Virus genome (UHGV): UHGV-1370141
Length of the DNA: 64,000 nt
Source of the DNA: a virus
Reading direction: 5' to 3' (one strand)
Shown piece by piece: positions 1 through 63,977 of this stretch (within the stretch, counting starts at the first letter, position 1; every line of letters starts with the position of its first letter). The notes under the pieces were generated by a model. It worked only from the letters and a program-made list of their open reading frames with translations, did not search any database and was not told the origin of the DNA. The position numbers and the translations under genes are program-made.

Positions 1-167
1 GGTATGGGAGACGAACTCTTTTGAGTCTGGGGAGCTTCGGCTCCCCCTACGACCCCTTATGCGTCCCGAAAAGCAAAAAAAAAACAGAAGGCTTATTAAT
101 TATGAACGGAAGATAACTACTGAACTAAGTAGGGGGTGTCGCCGCACCCCCTTTATTAGTTAGTAAC

Positions 168-383
168 TTACCTCCTTACAGGCGGTTGGTGAACATTGTG
201 GTTGTTAACCGTTTTCGGTGCCGCAACGAGGCCGAGACGAACATATTCGTCCATGCGTTGGTTAAACTGAATTTGTTTTTCACGATTTCGCATCGCGGTA
301 TTGAACAGCTGTATTTGATAATCGTTCATTTTCATTACCTTTCGTAATGTTGTAAAAACGTCAACAACTTTATGTGTTGACAC
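168..383 (-). CDS. hypothetical protein (71 aa)
   Basis: ORF track; followed by GC hairpin ~132-151. Confidence 0.4.
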   Translation of the reverse strand: MSTHKVVDVFTTLRKVMKMNDYQIQLFNTAMRNREKQIQFNQRMDEYVRLGLVAAPKTVNNHNVHQPPVRR

Positions 384-685
384 CGTACAGTAGAGACTGG
401 CGAAACAGTCTCTACTGCTTTAACTTCTCTTTGGAAAAGTTAAAGCTATGATAAGGGGTGTGTCACCACCCCTTGTTTTTTATCAGTTACTTCTCCTTTC
501 AACTATCAACTGGGTGTTTCTTGGATAAGCAACTTTGGGCTGAGTTAACGTTGGTTGCGCTATTTCACTAACCCTTCGTTGAAATTCGAGCTGTTTTACG
601 GACAACTCGTTTAACCTTTGAAACAACTGTTCATGTTTCATGAACTTTTCTCCTATGTTGAAGTTGCGAAAATAAATAAAGTGTA

Positions 686-711
686 CCCCTAATCCTTTTC
701 GGGATTAGGGG
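686..711 (-). terminator. rho-independent-type terminator hairpin
   Basis: CCCCTAATCC-TTTTC-GGGATTAGGG stem-loop just downstream of the 718 stop; A-run on plus side (T-run on transcribed strand). Confidence 0.5.
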
Positions 712-717
712 TTGCTT

Positions 718-1533
718 TTATTTAGTCGCTACGTATTGAACATGACCACATCCCTTACATTGCACATTGGCTTGCGGGAATGTTAGGCCGGTTAAAGGAA
801 CACGGATTTGATACTGTGCTCCACATTCTTCACAAACAAAATCGTGTTCTGGATAAACACGACCTTTCAATTTCTCATCCTTCCTTAACGTTTCAGCCAG
901 GAAATGCATGGCTCCTAACGCTTCATTAATCTGCTGTTCCCATTCACCGTCTAACGGATATGCGAAAGCACGAATCAACGTTTCCACCATCTCTGGCTTA
1001 TTGCTCACGTAGACGTGTTTCAATTCAAACTCTACACGTTGTAGACCGAACAGCACACGTGCAGTTACCGTTACATTATCTAACGTTTGTGAGAACACAC
1101 CGGTGTTGTCGTCTGCCTGTAATACAAATTCGGAGGCACGCTCGTAGTCAATATCACTCCACTCCACCAACCGTACGTTTTGTATTGCTTCTGCGACTTT
1201 AGGGTTACCGTAAATAGGATGTAGCAGAAAACCCAGGATAACTTCATTCATTGCTTTTAATCGCTCTAAGCGTACTACTGGGTCAGTATTAACCACGAGC
1301 AAGCGTAAAAGCCTGGACTTCAGCCAGCTAAGGCCGCAAGAAACGTTTACAGCAACCGTACAGACACTTACTTCTTTAGGCTCGAGGAGAATGAAACTCG
1401 GTTTACCTCCTACATTAGTTAGGTAAATAACAAACTCACCGCTATTAGACTTACTGATGATTTCCATCGAATCCGCTGGTACGAAATGGTCACTACTGAT
1501 GCCGGTCGGAAAATAGTCTTTGATAGTTTTCAT
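718..1533 (-). CDS. hypothetical protein with C-terminal CxxC...CxxC zinc-ribbon
   Basis: 271-aa ORF; C-terminal CEECG...CKGCG. Confidence 0.6.
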   Translation of the reverse strand: MKTIKDYFPTGISSDHFVPADSMEIISKSNSGEFVIYLTNVGGKPSFILLEPKEVSVCTVAVNVSCGLSWLKSRLLRLLVVNTDPVVRLERLKAMNEVILGFLLHPIYGNPKVAEAIQNVRLVEWSDIDYERASEFVLQADDNTGVFSQTLDNVTVTARVLFGLQRVEFELKHVYVSNKPEMVETLIRAFAYPLDGEWEQQINEALGAMHFLAETLRKDEKLKGRVYPEHDFVCEECGAQYQIRVPLTGLTFPQANVQCKGCGHVQYVATK

Positions 1534-1550
1534 TTAAAAATACTCCGATA

Positions 1551-1582
1551 GATAAAAAATTAAGGGCACCCGAAGGTGCCTT
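1551..1582 (-). terminator. terminator hairpin after lipoprotein gene
   Basis: plus-strand A-run then AAGGCACC-CGAA-GGTGCCTT. Confidence 0.5.
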
Positions 1583-1587
1583 ATACA

Positions 1588-1731
1588 TTAACCACGACCA
1601 GTGCACTGCGCAACGGAGTTACCGTTGTCGATGCAAGTGTCGTAGCCTTTATCGATATCCAGGTACAGGCAACCCAGAACAACAGCGATAACAACAGCGA
1701 AGATAGCTTTTTTGTGTTTTACAGAAATCAT
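1588..1731 (-). CDS. small lipoprotein (47 aa), not in ORF track
   Basis: MISVKHKKAIFAVVIAVVLGC...: signal peptide ending in lipobox L-G-C, two further Cys; RBS TAGGAG 7 nt upstream of ATG. Confidence 0.5.
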   Translation of the reverse strand: MISVKHKKAIFAVVIAVVLGCLYLDIDKGYDTCIDNGNSVAQCTGRG

Positions 1732-1779
1732 GATATAGCTCCTAATTAGGTATTCGATAAATGAGTATTACGTAATTCT

Positions 1780-1803
1780 CTCACCTAAGTAATATATATC
1801 TGA
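1780..1803 (-). promoter_or_regulatory. AT-rich promoter-like motif (class 1)
   Basis: transcribed strand TCAGATATATATTACTTAGGTGAG ~50 nt upstream of lipoprotein ATG; near-identical copy at 9569-9593. Confidence 0.45.
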
Positions 1804-1967
1804 AAATATTTTAATTAAAACACCCTCTAAAACGCGCTGTATCGCATTCTGACGACCTTTTATTTTTTAAACACCATTAATCGTCTTAAGGTGTAAAACA
1901 GCGTCTAAGACGCGTTTACGAGTAAATAAAAGGACATCCCGTTACCCACGAAGGTAACGGGATAATT

Positions 1968-2774
1968 TTACATCACTTGCATTTTGTTCACGACCGCAAG
2001 TTCTTCATCAGCAATACCGCTTTTCGATGAGATCGTAAAACGTTTATCGTTGATGACTTCTACGGCGTCACGAATATGCAGACCTTTCTCTTCAGTAATC
2101 GGGAGGATAGAATCGTTATCCTGCGGGCCGATTAACTGACAAGTAAACGGTACGTACGCGTTAAACGTGATATACGGACCTAGTTGCATAACCGGGAACA
2201 CTTCGTTGAAGTTGCTTGCCATTCCGCTGTCAGACGAAATTACTGCGTAACGAACAACAGCACGTAACGCAATGGTGTTTTCAGGATCGCGTGCTTCGCC
2301 AATCATCGTGAAACGGAAAGCATTGAACTCATAGTCGTCAGACTCAGCAAAATGCGTCGGAAGCAAACGTTCGATATACTTCGGATACGTTTCTGGTTCT
2401 CCTGGAACTACCGCATTCGCCAACTTCTGTGCGTAGAAATAGCAATACGCGAAACCGTACTGCGCTTCCAGTGCTCCCGTCACTACCGCAGTCGTGATTG
2501 CGTGCAAGAACAACAAATTACCCAAAGAACCTTTTTCTTCAATCGGTAATAAGCGATGGCCCTGTACTCCGTCAACCGTGTAGATAACAGAGACCGTTTT
2601 GTCAGCAGAAGACGCCATGACGAAATCTAGCTGACAATGCTCGCCGCCTGGAATAACCTTTAAGCAACGTTCTAACAGTTTGGACGGTTTAGCGAAATGT
2701 TCTTTTTCGTACTCGTCAATCTGCATTAACGTTTGACCAGACATGCGGAAAGTAAGTAAATTGCTCATTAACAA
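1968..2774 (-). CDS. hypothetical protein (268 aa)
   Basis: ORF track; RBS context AACCTAAAGGA before ATG. Confidence 0.6.
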   Translation of the reverse strand: MLMSNLLTFRMSGQTLMQIDEYEKEHFAKPSKLLERCLKVIPGGEHCQLDFVMASSADKTVSVIYTVDGVQGHRLLPIEEKGSLGNLLFLHAITTAVVTGALEAQYGFAYCYFYAQKLANAVVPGEPETYPKYIERLLPTHFAESDDYEFNAFRFTMIGEARDPENTIALRAVVRYAVISSDSGMASNFNEVFPVMQLGPYITFNAYVPFTCQLIGPQDNDSILPITEEKGLHIRDAVEVINDKRFTISSKSGIADEELAVVNKMQVM

Positions 2775-2800
2775 ATCCTTTAGGTTGCTGTCGACATAAC

Positions 2801-4120
2801 TTACGTTGTGGATGTAAAATTTTCATTAGTCAGCCACAACGTCAACTGACTAATGGTATTAAACCGTGGTGATGCCGCTGAACCACCATCAATTGCACCT
2901 TGGAAAACTTCTGCAACTAATGTTCCGTAACGCGTGTATACACCATAGTTATTCGCATAAATGTATTTTACTGCCATCCCAGGACGGAGTAAGCCGTACG
3001 TTGATGCGTTCCAGGTTGTTGCTGTTAGCGTCCCTTTCGCCGCCGCCAACTTAGACCGTTGCGGTTTATCTGTGTCCGAGAAGTGTTGGTTCGGGTCTAT
3101 TGGTGCGTTAACTACCCCACCTGGATATTGCGTCGGATCAGCCGCTGACACGAACGAATCTGACGTTGTAGCAGAAACATCGCCTGACGAGAAAGAAGAC
3201 GCACGGCCATCCAACGCACGGATAGACCCCACACGATAACCGGTACCTTGGTTTAGTGCTAGGGAGTCTTTATCTTCGAAGGTGTGGACATCACCACCAC
3301 ATATCAGGTAAATCACGTCACCGTCAATGTGGCAGGTCTTATTCAGATACGCTGCTTTCTCTTTCGGTAGGTTTATAATCACCAGCTTATTCTTCGCTGA
3401 TGAAAACTTCTTAGAGTCCCAAGGTTGGAAAATATACCAACGGTGTTTGTAGAGGAACACCCCCAGCCCTTGGCTATAAACCCCGTAACGATTCTGAAGG
3501 TAATCGAACACAGACAGGAAACTTTCCGAGTCAGGAATCAAAATATCCCGATAGGGCTGTTGCTCCTCTTCCTCGTACTCCACACCCACCAACTGACCTT
3601 CTGGCGCATCACCAGTAGGTAACGTATCTGCCAACAGTGCACGAACAACACTAAGGCCATCTGTCTCGTGATAAATCCCACCGACTTGACGGCAACGTAA
3701 GAACCACATCGACTCGTCCATCAACTCCAGGGTGACGACCGCTAACGCTTTCTGGTCAGACTCACCTAAGAACATCGTGGGCGATTCCATATCGGGATCG
3801 TGGTTGTTCACGACGATACCCCGATAGTCGAGTTTCGCAACGGTTTTCTTGTTCATTGTCCGCATTAGAATTTTCACAGACAAATCCCCGTCTGCGGAAG
3901 ACGTTAACACACGCTGTTGGCTTAACGGTATCATCACGGTAAGATGGGTGATAGTCGTTAAGTCCTGTGCGAAGTTACTGGCATGGATTATCGACAACGT
4001 TTTAAATACGCTGATAACTGTCCCACGTACCGTAATGATAGGTACGTATTCGATGGCCGGTAATCCCGCCGCTTGTGCAATATGCACGTTTGCTATGTTC
4101 TGTAACCGACCAAACGACAT
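2801..4120 (-). CDS. hypothetical protein (439 aa)
   Basis: ORF track, tightly packed in operon. Confidence 0.6.
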   Translation of the reverse strand: MSFGRLQNIANVHIAQAAGLPAIEYVPIITVRGTVISVFKTLSIIHASNFAQDLTTITHLTVMIPLSQQRVLTSSADGDLSVKILMRTMNKKTVAKLDYRGIVVNNHDPDMESPTMFLGESDQKALAVVTLELMDESMWFLRCRQVGGIYHETDGLSVVRALLADTLPTGDAPEGQLVGVEYEEEEQQPYRDILIPDSESFLSVFDYLQNRYGVYSQGLGVFLYKHRWYIFQPWDSKKFSSAKNKLVIINLPKEKAAYLNKTCHIDGDVIYLICGGDVHTFEDKDSLALNQGTGYRVGSIRALDGRASSFSSGDVSATTSDSFVSAADPTQYPGGVVNAPIDPNQHFSDTDKPQRSKLAAAKGTLTATTWNASTYGLLRPGMAVKYIYANNYGVYTRYGTLVAEVFQGAIDGGSAASPRFNTISQLTLWLTNENFTSTT

Positions 4121-7945: not shown

Positions 7946-8432
7946 TTTCGGGTTTCGAATAATGTGTCAGGTTGTAATTCAGTCTGAAGACATCGCGATC
8001 GATTTCAGGGAAGAACGCATCCGCACCCTCTACCTTAACCTCAACACGAGACAAGTAAATCTTATCCGCATAAGGCATCGCCTGTTGGTAAATCTCTGCG
8101 CCGCCAATAATAAAGATTTCTTTCGGGTAATCTTTCTCCACGACCTCTTTCTTGAGAAACTCAATAACCGACCCCATGTCACCTTTAAGGTTCAACACAC
8201 CGTCGATGTCAGGAACACCTCCTTGTTTTCGTGTTAAGATAACATGGTGACGGTTCGGTAAAGGTTTATACCCCAACGATTCCCACGTCTTACGTCCCAT
8301 CACGATAACCTTACCTGACGTAAGTGCTTTGAAGTTCTTCAAGTCATCGGGAATATGCCAAGGGAGTTTATTGTCTTTCCCTATTTCATTATTAAGTCCC
8401 GCTGCTGCAATCAACGATACAGTAACTGTCAT
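7896..8432 (-). CDS. folA: dihydrofolate reductase
   Basis: SLIAAAGLNNEIGKDNKLPWHIPDDL...VIVMGRKTWESLG matches the DHFR N-terminal signature (recalled E. coli FolA / T4 Frd pattern). Confidence 0.85.
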   Translation of the reverse strand: MTVTVSLIAAAGLNNEIGKDNKLPWHIPDDLKNFKALTSGKVIVMGRKTWESLGYKPLPNRHHVILTRKQGGVPDIDGVLNLKGDMGSVIEFLKKEVVEKDYPKEIFIIGGAEIYQQAMPYADKIYLSRVEVKVEGADAFFPEIDRDVFRLNYNLTHYSKPESGIPRWHYQIWKRDGN

Positions 8433-8734
8433 TTCACAACTCCCATCGACTCTCTTAATTTCCGAATAAATGCTTTACGTGTAAGCTGACTGGTTTTGTA
8501 ACCGTCAGCAAGATGCCAAACGGTTACTTTTCGTCCAGCCGCCTCTAAATGAAGATAATTAATCTCACCTGTCCCCGTTTTGATTGGTTCGGCAAGCGGT
8601 ACCATCAACTCACCGTTCCACTCAGGCTCGTTTAGCTTAGGGATAACTAAACGTAATTCGATACGTTTAACCTGGTACTCGGTTTCACACTCTTCAAAAC
8701 GTATCACGTCTATTCGGTCGGCTCTCGGATTCAT
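8429..8734 (-). CDS. hypothetical protein (101 aa)
   Basis: ORF track; overlaps neighbours by 4 nt. Confidence 0.5.
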   Translation of the reverse strand: MNPRADRIDVIRFEECETEYQVKRIELRLVIPKLNEPEWNGELMVPLAEPIKTGTGEINYLHLEAAGRKVTVWHLADGYKTSQLTRKAFIRKLRESMGVVK

Positions 8735-8735
8735 C

Positions 8736-9287
8736 TTAACCTTCCATGTATTGTCTTATTCCGTACTCTGGTTCAATGTTTGAAACAGTTGAAGAAGGCA
8801 CCACGGACAACTGGTTATAGATTTTCAGTAAGTCGTCACGCAGCAGTTTTTGTTCGATATCCAGTTTGTAGGAAGCCAATTCTTTCGTTAACGGCGCAGT
8901 TAACACAACACGGGTCTGGTATCCGTCGAACGGTTGCGGGACACGGAGACCACGAGCACGATAGAAAGATTCTAACTTCGAGTAGTCGCGAATATAAGTT
9001 TTGGTTAGAATCGAATACCCTGCATCAAGCATGAACTTATAGAACGGTTTAAGTTCAATAAAACGGTTATACTCGAGGTGTTCTGGAATATAGAACTGAT
9101 AGTTACCGTACTCAAGAACTGACAACGCCGAACCGTTGCAATGGCTGTTGTTAACGAATATCGCTAAGCCAATCATAACTGGACGCGGAATATTCAGAAC
9201 TTTCTCACCGAACTGAACACGAAAGATTTCTTGCTGAATAGAAGACTCGGATACAACTTTAGCGTCTAAGATATTAAATTTGTTCAT
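8736..9287 (-). CDS. hypothetical protein (183 aa)
   Basis: ORF track; RBS CCTTTAGGAGAATAGAA-ATG; no ThyA/ThyX motifs seen. Confidence 0.55.
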   Translation of the reverse strand: MNKFNILDAKVVSESSIQQEIFRVQFGEKVLNIPRPVMIGLAIFVNNSHCNGSALSVLEYGNYQFYIPEHLEYNRFIELKPFYKFMLDAGYSILTKTYIRDYSKLESFYRARGLRVPQPFDGYQTRVVLTAPLTKELASYKLDIEQKLLRDDLLKIYNQLSVVPSSTVSNIEPEYGIRQYMEG

Positions 9288-9341: not shown

Positions 9342-9545
9342 TTATAGCGCTTTAATAAAACGTTTTACTGCCTGAACCTCTGGGCACTGAGAAACTTCTT
9401 TTCGCTTGTGCGCTATGATGGGTGTCACTAAGCAAACGACATCAGCGGTTGGTGTTTCCACAGTGACCACCATATCTTCGGTTGTCTGGAATTCTTTCTT
9501 GGATTGGAAGCGGTTCATGATAATTCTCCTAAACGTAATAAACAT
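9342..9545 (-). CDS. hypothetical protein (67 aa)
   Basis: ORF track; 5' leader hairpin GAGATTAC-ACA-GTAATCTC directly upstream, no obvious SD. Confidence 0.45.
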   Translation of the reverse strand: MFITFRRIIMNRFQSKKEFQTTEDMVVTVETPTADVVCLVTPIIAHKRKEVSQCPEVQAVKRFIKAL

Positions 9546-9568
9546 GTCGTAAGAGATTACTGTGTAAT

Positions 9569-9593
9569 CTCACTAAGGTAATATATATCTGAG
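9569..9593 (-). promoter_or_regulatory. AT-rich promoter-like motif (class 1)
   Basis: CTCAGATATATATTACCTTAGTGAG on transcribed strand, ~25 nt upstream of 9545 start. Confidence 0.45.
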
Positions 9594-63858: not shown

Positions 63859-63977
63859 TTTTATATATATTTATATATAATATATATTATATATAATAAT
63901 TATATTATTAATATATTTATTTAATATATTTATATTTATTAAAATAAATATATATTAAAATATATAATTAAATAATA
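63859..63977. repeat. 119-bp tract of pure A+T
   Basis: no G or C between ~63859 and ~63977; TATATA/ATTAT-type low complexity. Confidence 0.7.

Follow-up and report, generated by a model that had tools for sequence, protein, structure and literature searches.

A conserved 47-codon gene with early-type signals in a phiKZ/SPN3US-like jumbo phage encodes a putative envelope peptide with a variable tether

Introduction

Several small phage proteins act from the membrane of the infected cell. T5 Llp and the Cor proteins of phi80 and N15 are early superinfection-exclusion lipoproteins whose mature part has about 60 amino acids. T4 Imm and Sp, the transmembrane-anchored Sie2009 of lactococcal phages and the lipoprotein Ltp of Streptococcus thermophilus phage TP-J34 are membrane-anchored proteins of about 80 to 160 amino acids that exclude DNA entry. 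T5 Llp, T4 Imm and Sp and TP-J34 Ltp provide precedents for exclusion or envelope protection. Here we analyze a 64,000-nucleotide stretch of the virus genome UHGV-1370141 (the window; positions are counted from its first letter) and in it a 47-codon gene at 1588 to 1731. An earlier note had placed a lipoprotein gene there, naming no strand, with a good ribosome-binding site, a promoter-like element and a terminator of its own. The open reading frame (ORF) lies on the minus strand, encodes 47 amino acids and is accompanied by all three signals (Table 1).

The product is a new, fairly divergent member of a catalogued but uncharacterised phage family, PHROG 8574. It resembles the family member gp66 of SPN3US, a flagellotropic Salmonella phage, in its length, in its slot after gp64 and gp65, in its promoter motif and in its C-x9-C-T-G-R-G end. 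Unlike SPN3US gp66, which has Val at the lipobox column, the window protein has Cys there. The related phages SPN3US and Asesino are counted among the nucleus-forming Chimalliviridae (PMC13282480). We hypothesize that the locus, in a nucleus-forming jumbo phage akin to phiKZ and SPN3US, forms a self-contained unit of early transcription and yields a 47-residue envelope-targeted pre-peptide, a proposal that we regard as evenly poised.

Results

The small ORF is a conserved gene

The ORF at 1588 to 1731 on the minus strand encodes MISVKHKKAIFAVVIAVVLGCLYLDIDKGYDTCIDNGNSVAQCTGRG (47 amino acids). Residues 1 to 47 match positions 1 to 47 of the 47-column profile of phrog_8574, a family of unknown function (E = 3.4e-23, 82 bits). 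Its SPN3US homologue is gp66 (SPN3US_0066), and the Erwinia phage proteins ChrisDB gp82, Kwan gp81 and Asesino gp84 are further orthologues; identity to named relatives ranges from 43 to 56%. A tblastn search with the peptide found matches in 61 GenBank phage records, and the 16 matches that were fetched and intact are syntenic homologues. Phages bearing a homologue infect Salmonella, Erwinia, Escherichia and Proteus, and four genera of the International Committee on Taxonomy of Viruses are represented among the fetched records (Seoulvirus, Machinavirus, Erskinevirus and Wellingtonvirus). The synteny spans SPN3US-, phiEaH2-, Machina- and Wellington-like jumbo phages: in every intact GenBank record fetched, homologues of SPN3US gp64, a head/neck protein (PMC5105663), and of gp65 are found upstream of the small gene, and the order gp64-gp65-small gene is the same in the window, ChrisDB, SEGD1, SPN3US, Huxley and Asesino. 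In GenBank most homologues are labelled 'hypothetical protein' and a few records have no feature at this place; the automatic, rule-based UniRef name of Kwan gp81 is 'Lipoprotein'. Identical copies of the small protein are found on IMG/VR contigs of 150 to 225 kb.

GenBank and metagenomic members together give 43 distinct sequences of 45 to 51 amino acids, and this length, the reading frame and the stop position are kept in at least four genera. Nei-Gojobori counts for 17 coding sequences (136 pairs) gave a lower proportion of nonsynonymous differences (pN) than of synonymous differences (pS) in all 136 pairs, with a mean pS of 0.61, which is near saturation, and a mean pN of 0.28. Constraint peaks over the last 23 codons, where pN/pS is 0.28 compared with 0.65 in the N-terminal half, and pN in the C-terminal module is 0.18. 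This substitution pattern indicates that the small gene is under purifying selection. We judge the gene to be real because it is conserved, as seen from the PHROG match, the syntenic homologues and pN<pS, and not because of its lipobox pattern. The locus at 1588 to 1731 is a genuine conserved gene of a giant phiKZ-like phage.

The family proved narrow: of 1.84 billion representatives searched exhaustively with a profile hidden Markov model (HMM), only 12 proteins matched at E≤1e-3, and by this search no host protein is mimicked. Three of the 12 matches (P0035 to P0037) are more distant small homologues; P0036 is syntenic in a more divergent jumbo-phage contig and has the same promoter motif. 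P0034, a low-complexity eukaryotic protein, was rejected as spurious. Scans of the peptide and its relatives against Pfam, NCBIfam and PADLOC gave nothing, and a PDB profile search gave chance-level matches to CRF-receptor entries (E of 0.1 or worse). Foldseek searches of BFVD and PDB with the AlphaFold2 model of the peptide recovered family members only, the remaining matches being non-significant helical or thionin-like proteins (E>0.1). Literature searches on SPN3US gp66 and on jumbo-phage exclusion lipoproteins brought up nothing specific.

Some database records of this family are corrupted. LR535904 (Salmonella phage SPFM7, L022) and LR535907 (SPFM9, L023) are collinear with SPN3US only in blocks of 60 nt, which keep their orientation while the order of the blocks is reversed, as if a FASTA file had been reversed line by line. 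This reversal explains the truncated tblastn matches of 20 residues and the 'scrambled' gp66 ORFs in SPFM1, 5, 6, 7, 9, 10, 14, 15 and 20. We therefore rejected the scrambled homologues in SPFM7 and SPFM9 as biology, and annotations on the reversed SPFM records are likely unreliable.

An early-type promoter and a terminator enclose the gene

Upstream of the gene, the motif TCAGATATATATTACTTAGGTGAGA, at 1779 to 1803 on the minus strand, is preceded by an AT-rich tract; the window motif reads aAAAtATTTTCAGATATATATTACTTAGGTGAGA. The promoter-like element of the earlier note is thereby borne out, as the window holds two copies of the motif (the other at 9568 to 9592, also on the minus strand) and 100 shuffled versions hold none. 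In 15 related loci the motif is nearly unchanged upstream of the homologous operon while its flanks diverge. IMG/VR contains 49 exact matches, nearly all in contigs of 200 to 246 kb or in fragments, several per genome; we counted six copies in a contig of the window lineage and five in SPN3US.

Conserved AT-rich motifs of this kind, centred near −10, are found upstream of early operons; they are confirmed early promoters where transcription has been profiled, and the virion RNA polymerase is the enzyme that presumably recognises them (PMC7598289). The predicted early promoters of phiKZ (TATATTAC), 201phi2-1 (TTTRARR-BTATATTACDWHDGTG), OBP and N1M2 have been tabulated (PMC7058600, Table 2), and the window motif matches them. 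Like the phiKZ-like early promoters, the window has an AT-rich tract followed by TTTCAGAT, ATATATTAC and YTAGGTGA, and the motif is present in multiple copies per genome ahead of small-gene operons; unlike theirs, its assignment in the clade of the window is by motif identity and position. Early expression of the small gene is well supported by this analogy. A sigma-70 scan found no host-type promoter ahead of the small gene.

In the relatives the promoter drives two to four small genes. A tblastn search of the window for SPN3US gp67 to gp69, ChrisDB gp80, 81 and 83 and Huxley gp80, 82 and 83 found none of them. Hence, unlike in the relatives, the small gene stands alone between promoter and terminator, which makes it the conserved core of the operon. 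The signals closest to the gene have counterparts in Salmonella phage SEGD1 and in ChrisDB, with AAGGAG or AAGGAA at the position equivalent to the Shine-Dalgarno sequence and an equivalent CACC-TNCG-GGTG hairpin with a T-run at the end of the homologous operon. The fold energy of the window terminator is by itself unremarkable (z-score −1.8).

Just 5' of the promoter, some 35 nt (consensus ...GCGCTCAGAACGCGTTTGAGAGCGTTTTAGAGGG) form a conserved element that is also present in the related loci L001, L002, L011, L017 and L021. Its GCG...GCGTT..AGAGGG columns are kept and its flanks are not, and it may be part of the transcription unit. In SEGD1 the element is a near-perfect palindrome, CTCTCAAAACGCGTTTGAGAG. 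It is absent at the second promoter copy and could be an operator, or an RNA or DNA hairpin, particular to this operon.

The peptide combines a hydrophobic N-terminus with an invariant C-terminal module

The protein begins with M-I-S-V-K-H-K-K, in which K5, H6, K7 and K8 are basic, followed by a 12-residue hydrophobic region (h-region), AIFAVVIAVVLG, and Cys21. Every family member has two to four Lys or Arg residues ahead of an uncharged run of 13 to 22 residues; the run has 16 residues in the window protein and 15 to 22 in nearly all relatives. The family ends in the motif Y-x2-C-x3-G-x-S-x3-C-T-G-R-(G/S), which extends up to the stop codon. Across 33 sequences C33, G37, S39, C43, T44, G45 and R46 never vary, and Y30, N36 and G47 hardly do; the window protein has all of the invariant columns, and the end residue of the protein is identical in nearly all members.

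AlphaFold2, run on the family alignment, gave a model (pLDDT 85.6) in which one helix covers residues 4 to 35 and, after a turn at N-G-N-S, a second, short one covers residues 40 to 44. The C-terminal module is predicted to be a helical hairpin with the two invariant cysteines facing each other and stapled by a C33-C43 disulfide. Because of the basic N-terminus (positive-inside rule) and the conserved C-terminal cysteine pair, the most economical reading is an N-in, C-out orientation that would place the module in the oxidising periplasm. The gene probably serves to deliver a tiny disulfide-stapled peptide to the host periplasm.

P0033, a 381-residue metagenomic protein found by the HMM search, has four tandem repeats of AY[ND/S]xCIG[NS]G[NA][ST]xxQC that resemble the C-terminal module of gp66 and come after a region with multiple transmembrane segments at the N-terminus; its match to the profile is weak (E of 1e-5), and a Pfam Thionin match is sub-threshold. 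The repeats suggest that the C-x9-C hairpin may be an autonomous mini-domain that is reused elsewhere.

The candidate lipidation site varies within the family

The window protein conforms to the PROSITE PS51257 rule, which we re-implemented (charged n-region, h-region of 7 to 22 residues, Cys within residues 15 to 35), as do 17 of 41 family members. Cys is confined to one column of the hydrophobic segment, the lipobox column, where it occurs in 19 of the 43 distinct members. In the remaining 24, among them SPN3US gp66 (Val) and the proteins of phiEaH2, Asesino and Huxley, the column holds Val, Ser, Ala, Thr, Leu, Ile or Trp. The column is polymorphic within Machinavirus (Cys in ChrisDB and Caitlin but not in Huxley and SNUABM_6) and within Wellingtonvirus (Cys in Wellington and Kwan but not in SNUABM_11), and a rough neighbor-joining and Fitch reconstruction requires at least five changes of state.

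The residues around this column differ between the two groups. At position −1, Ala or Gly is present in 18 of the 19 Cys-bearing and 13 of the 24 Cys-less proteins (Fisher p of 0.005, kinship ignored). Position −2 is Leu, Val, Ala or Thr in all but one of the Cys-bearing proteins (18/19, the remaining one having Phe), compared with Phe in 14 of the 24 Cys-less ones, and position +2 is Ser, Ala or Gly in 16/19 compared with Leu in 14/24. The V-L-G-C-L-Y-L of the window protein resembles the A-F-G-S/V-L-Y-L type after F-to-L and S/V-to-C changes. Judging from these patterns we lean slightly toward lipidation of the window protein at Cys21. Lipidation does not define the family, because more than half of the homologues lack the Cys, and the function of the family is clearly independent of it. 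What the earlier note described as a signal peptide with a lipobox, L-G-C, thus stands in part: the N-terminus is export- or anchor-like and Cys21 passes the PROSITE rule, but the lipobox is non-canonical and most members do without the Cys. The rule-based 'lipoprotein' label is unfit for propagation across the PHROG 8574 family.

Several observations weigh against the reading that we propose. The window protein does not fit the strict lipobox [LVI][ASTVI][GAS]C, because it has Leu at −2 (V-L-G-C), and none of 41 members fits it (0/41); the G+LPPv2 pattern fails as well. A six-frame PS51257 scan of the window gave one match, this ORF, compared with 1.7 ± 1.5 in shuffled sequences, so the lipobox pattern alone is at chance level and carries no weight. 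The apparent shift of the flanks toward lipobox-like residues where Cys is present comes from counts that ignore phylogeny. The hydrophobic run goes on beyond Cys21 and has borderline transmembrane length, and the single continuous helix that AlphaFold2 predicts through Cys21 makes an uncleaved membrane anchor a serious alternative. Cys variants in the outer membrane and Cys-less variants in the inner membrane would put the module on opposite sides of the periplasm, which is awkward for a single target; the target may span or fill the periplasm, or the Cys variants may stay in the inner membrane or remain unprocessed. The searches of Pfam, NCBIfam, PADLOC, PDB and BFVD found no sequence or fold homology to Llp, Cor, defence models or solved structures, and we found no experiment or transcript data in the literature for any family member.

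Alternative tethers and roles

An uncleaved bitopic mini-protein of the inner membrane, held by an N-in/C-out signal anchor in which Cys21 is tolerated and never lipidated, is quite possible, although we would not bet on it. If the whole family stayed in the inner membrane, the conserved module would have one location in all members, and the 24 of 43 homologues without Cys, the lack of a strict lipobox in any member, the transmembrane length of the uncharged run and the unbroken helix from residue 4 to 35 would all be accommodated. Such an anchor leaves it unexplained why Cys turns up repeatedly at a single position of the hydrophobic segment and at no other, why it goes with Ala or Gly at −1, loss of Phe at −2 and small residues at +2, and why the PS51257 rule applies. 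In addition, Cys21, if neither modified nor buried, would be a third, free Cys at the periplasmic interface that could mispair with C33 and C43.

Directly ahead of the Cys column, the sequence in Cys-less members is A-F-A, A-F-G or A-L-S. These sequences would suit signal peptidase I, and Cys-less members may therefore be uncleaved anchors or released periplasmic peptides. Sec-dependent export and cleavage by signal peptidase I to a soluble periplasmic peptide could even be the ancestral mode of the family, with the window version being a lipidated derivative or likewise released. We consider this unlikely. The pattern of small residues at −3 and −1 with a bulky residue at −2 is classic, and the processing position would be identical to that in the lipobox variants; however, no polar c-region or helix breaker precedes the putative site, hydrophobic residues follow it, and Cys at +1 of the window protein favours signal peptidase II if the protein is processed.

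The earlier note also suggested an outer-membrane spanin. In favour of an o-spanin of a two-component spanin, acting in the last step of lysis, are the small size of the ORF, its signal peptide and a Cys that satisfies the PROSITE rule for lipoproteins, but the evidence on partner, proline content, promoter and neighbourhood rules this role out for all practical purposes. The adjacent inner-membrane partner that the suggestion calls for was looked for and none was found within several kb: none of the ORFs beside the gene, overlapping it or nested with it has a transmembrane segment at its N-terminus, on its two sides lie the 268-residue gp65 homologue and a 271-residue zinc-ribbon protein, and the only credible small membrane ORF in the intergenic gaps of the window is the gene itself. 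The gene forms a monocistronic unit with an early-type promoter and adjoins the head/neck structural module, with no endolysin or holin beside it. Moreover, the mature part would have 27 residues, has no proline and is predicted to be a compact disulfide hairpin, the majority of orthologues have no Cys to lipidate, and the operon partners in the relatives are small soluble proteins.

That the locus is not a gene, and is instead a chance ORF or a non-coding RNA leader, is barely conceivable: the ORF is very short, its lipobox is at chance level and it has no Pfam or NCBIfam match, but its conservation, including that of the Shine-Dalgarno sequence, and its substitution pattern exclude a chance ORF or a purely RNA element, and Rfam gave nothing relevant over window positions 1 to 3000.

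Surroundings of the gene

Table 1. Features of the small gene and its neighbourhood in the window
Feature	Position	Strand	Basis or remark
Terminator with T-run, GGCACC-UUCG-GGUGCC + CUUAAUUUUUU	1552-1582	minus	intrinsic terminator; fold energy −14.1 kcal/mol, z-score −1.8
Terminator hairpin, GGCACC-TTCG-GGTGCC	1565-1580	minus	terminator scan; 8 nt past the stop codon; followed by CTTAATTTTTT
Coding sequence with stop codon	1588-1731	minus	ATG start, 47 codons, TAA at 1590-1588
Residues 29-47, G-Y-D-T-C-I-D-N-G-N-S-V-A-Q-C-T-G-R-G	1591-1647	minus	conserved putative effector module, C33-x9-C43
Cys21 codon TGC, candidate lipidation site in V-L-G-C-L	1669-1671	minus	PROSITE PS51257 rule
Residues 1-20, signal peptide or membrane anchor	1672-1731	minus	sequence; hydrophobicity and charge tally
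Shine-Dalgarno sequence AGGAG	1739-1743	minus	read from sequence; 7 nt 5' of ATG
Early-type promoter, AT-rich tract then TTTCAGATATATATTACTTAGGTGAGA	1779-1820	minus	motif copies, related loci, published motifs
Conserved upstream element (...GTCAGAATGCGATACAGCGCGTTTTAGAGGG)	1821-1858	minus	next to the promoter on its 5' side; five or six intergenic regions aligned
271-residue ORF, phrog_10180	718-1533	minus	C-terminal CxxC...CxxC zinc-ribbon-like end; Pfam matches weak
268-residue gp65 homologue, phrog_8163	1968-2774		upstream of the small gene; tblastn 57.5% identity to SPN3US gp65
phrog_3245 ORF	2801-4120		upstream of the small gene; PHROG match

The first 6 kb of the window match Erwinia phage phiEaH2 only in patches at the nucleotide level. 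Window ORFs match PHROGs from SPN3US/phiEaH2-type jumbo phages, and the window also codes for a divergent family-B DNA polymerase and an RNA-polymerase beta-like protein. The 271-residue ORF starts about 20 nt beyond the T-run of the small gene's terminator and has a GGAG ribosome-binding site; no recognisable promoter was found ahead of its start, and it may be transcribed by terminator read-through or from a consensus-poor middle or late promoter.

Within positions 1 to 3000 there are 13 terminator-like hairpins compared with 3.1 expected, several of them bidirectional (for example, at 685 to 712 and 1935 to 1964). Two minus-strand mini-ORFs, at 168 to 383 (71 amino acids) and 483 to 641 (52 amino acids), have hairpins on both sides and may be additional unlisted mini-genes. 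The second promoter copy, at 9568 to 9592, lies directly behind a terminator hairpin and precedes ORFs at 9342 to 9545 (67 amino acids), 8736 to 9287 (183 amino acids, phrog_12369) and 8429 to 8734 (101 amino acids); from this copy down to about 8429 there is probably another early operon on the minus strand. Near the end of the window, at about 63870 to 63960, an extremely AT-rich self-complementary tract (…TATATATATTTATATATAATATATATTATATATAATAATTATATTATTAATATAT…) with GCGCGC at its flanks might be an origin or a site of packaging or recombination.

Discussion

Our work describes a conserved phage gene with its own regulatory signals, whose product joins a constrained C-terminal module to a variable tether. 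How would such a product reach its place of action? We hypothesize that a virion-delivered phage RNA polymerase starts at the early-type promoter, as its motif identity suggests, and makes a monocistronic mRNA of about 230 nt that ends at the hairpin terminator. The basic n-region and the hydrophobic segment would then insert the product into the inner membrane, dependent on Sec or YidC, with the C-terminus in the periplasm. In the window phage, Cys21 would be modified with diacylglyceryl by Lgt and the protein cut by signal peptidase II (LspA) to a lipopeptide of 27 residues, a step to which we give slightly better than an even chance. With Leu and not Asp at +2, the established +2 rule for Enterobacterales predicts Lol-dependent transfer of such a lipopeptide, by default to the inner leaflet of the outer membrane. 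In the relatives without Cys, more than half of the family, a transmembrane helix would keep the peptide anchored, or signal peptidase I would cleave it at A-F-A/G. DsbA would presumably close C33-C43. The active part would be the C-terminal helix-turn-helix hairpin, displaying the N-G-N-S turn and the fixed T-G-R-G end, which could together bind a target in the periplasm or envelope. The module is the only strongly constrained part of the protein, and the tether appears to be interchangeable.

What might the phage gain from such a peptide? It is our conjecture that binding of an envelope or periplasmic target early in infection protects the infected cell, either by superinfection exclusion or by blocking envelope damage by later phage. 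For a lytic-phage product that is predicted to be early and envelope-bound, that is not known to have a part in the virion and whose gene lies outside any lysis-gene context, exclusion or envelope protection is the role with the best precedents. A bolder version, which we put forward with considerable doubt, is that gp66-like peptides are the first envelope-level superinfection-exclusion or host-envelope-protection factor of the Chimalliviridae, a 19-residue stapled hairpin that evolution would have re-tethered repeatedly through a one-codon switch between Cys and Val or Ser.

We find it most interesting that the tether is switched repeatedly while the mini-domain that it holds stays invariant; if our reading is true, this would be a natural case in which a single peptide family alternates between a lipid and a helix as its tether. 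Within one early operon of SPN3US/phiEaH2-like jumbo phages, the 47-codon gene would then be the best-conserved member, and it would be among the few early products aimed at the envelope and not at the cytoplasm or the phage nucleus. It could also offer a compact handle on the early dealings of these phages with the envelope, be it the exclusion of rivals or protection from lysis from without. The gene illustrates that small ORFs under common size cut-offs in these genomes are real.

With lambda Rz1-type o-spanins the peptide has in common a small gene, a signal peptide and a potentially lipidated Cys; it differs in having no i-spanin partner, proline-rich segment or lysis cassette, in its early-type instead of late promoter and in the lack of conservation of the Cys. 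Like Llp and Cor, it is small, phage-encoded, predicted to be early and periplasm-facing, and has a lipoprotein-type signal; unlike them, it would have a mature part of only 27 residues, shows no detectable sequence or fold similarity and belongs to a family in which the lipobox is not conserved. Like Imm, Sp, Sie2009 and Ltp, it would be a small extracytoplasmic effector on a membrane tether, be it transmembrane or lipid. It has no homology to these proteins, and in contrast to them the gp66-like family appears to combine both types of tether within one orthologous family.

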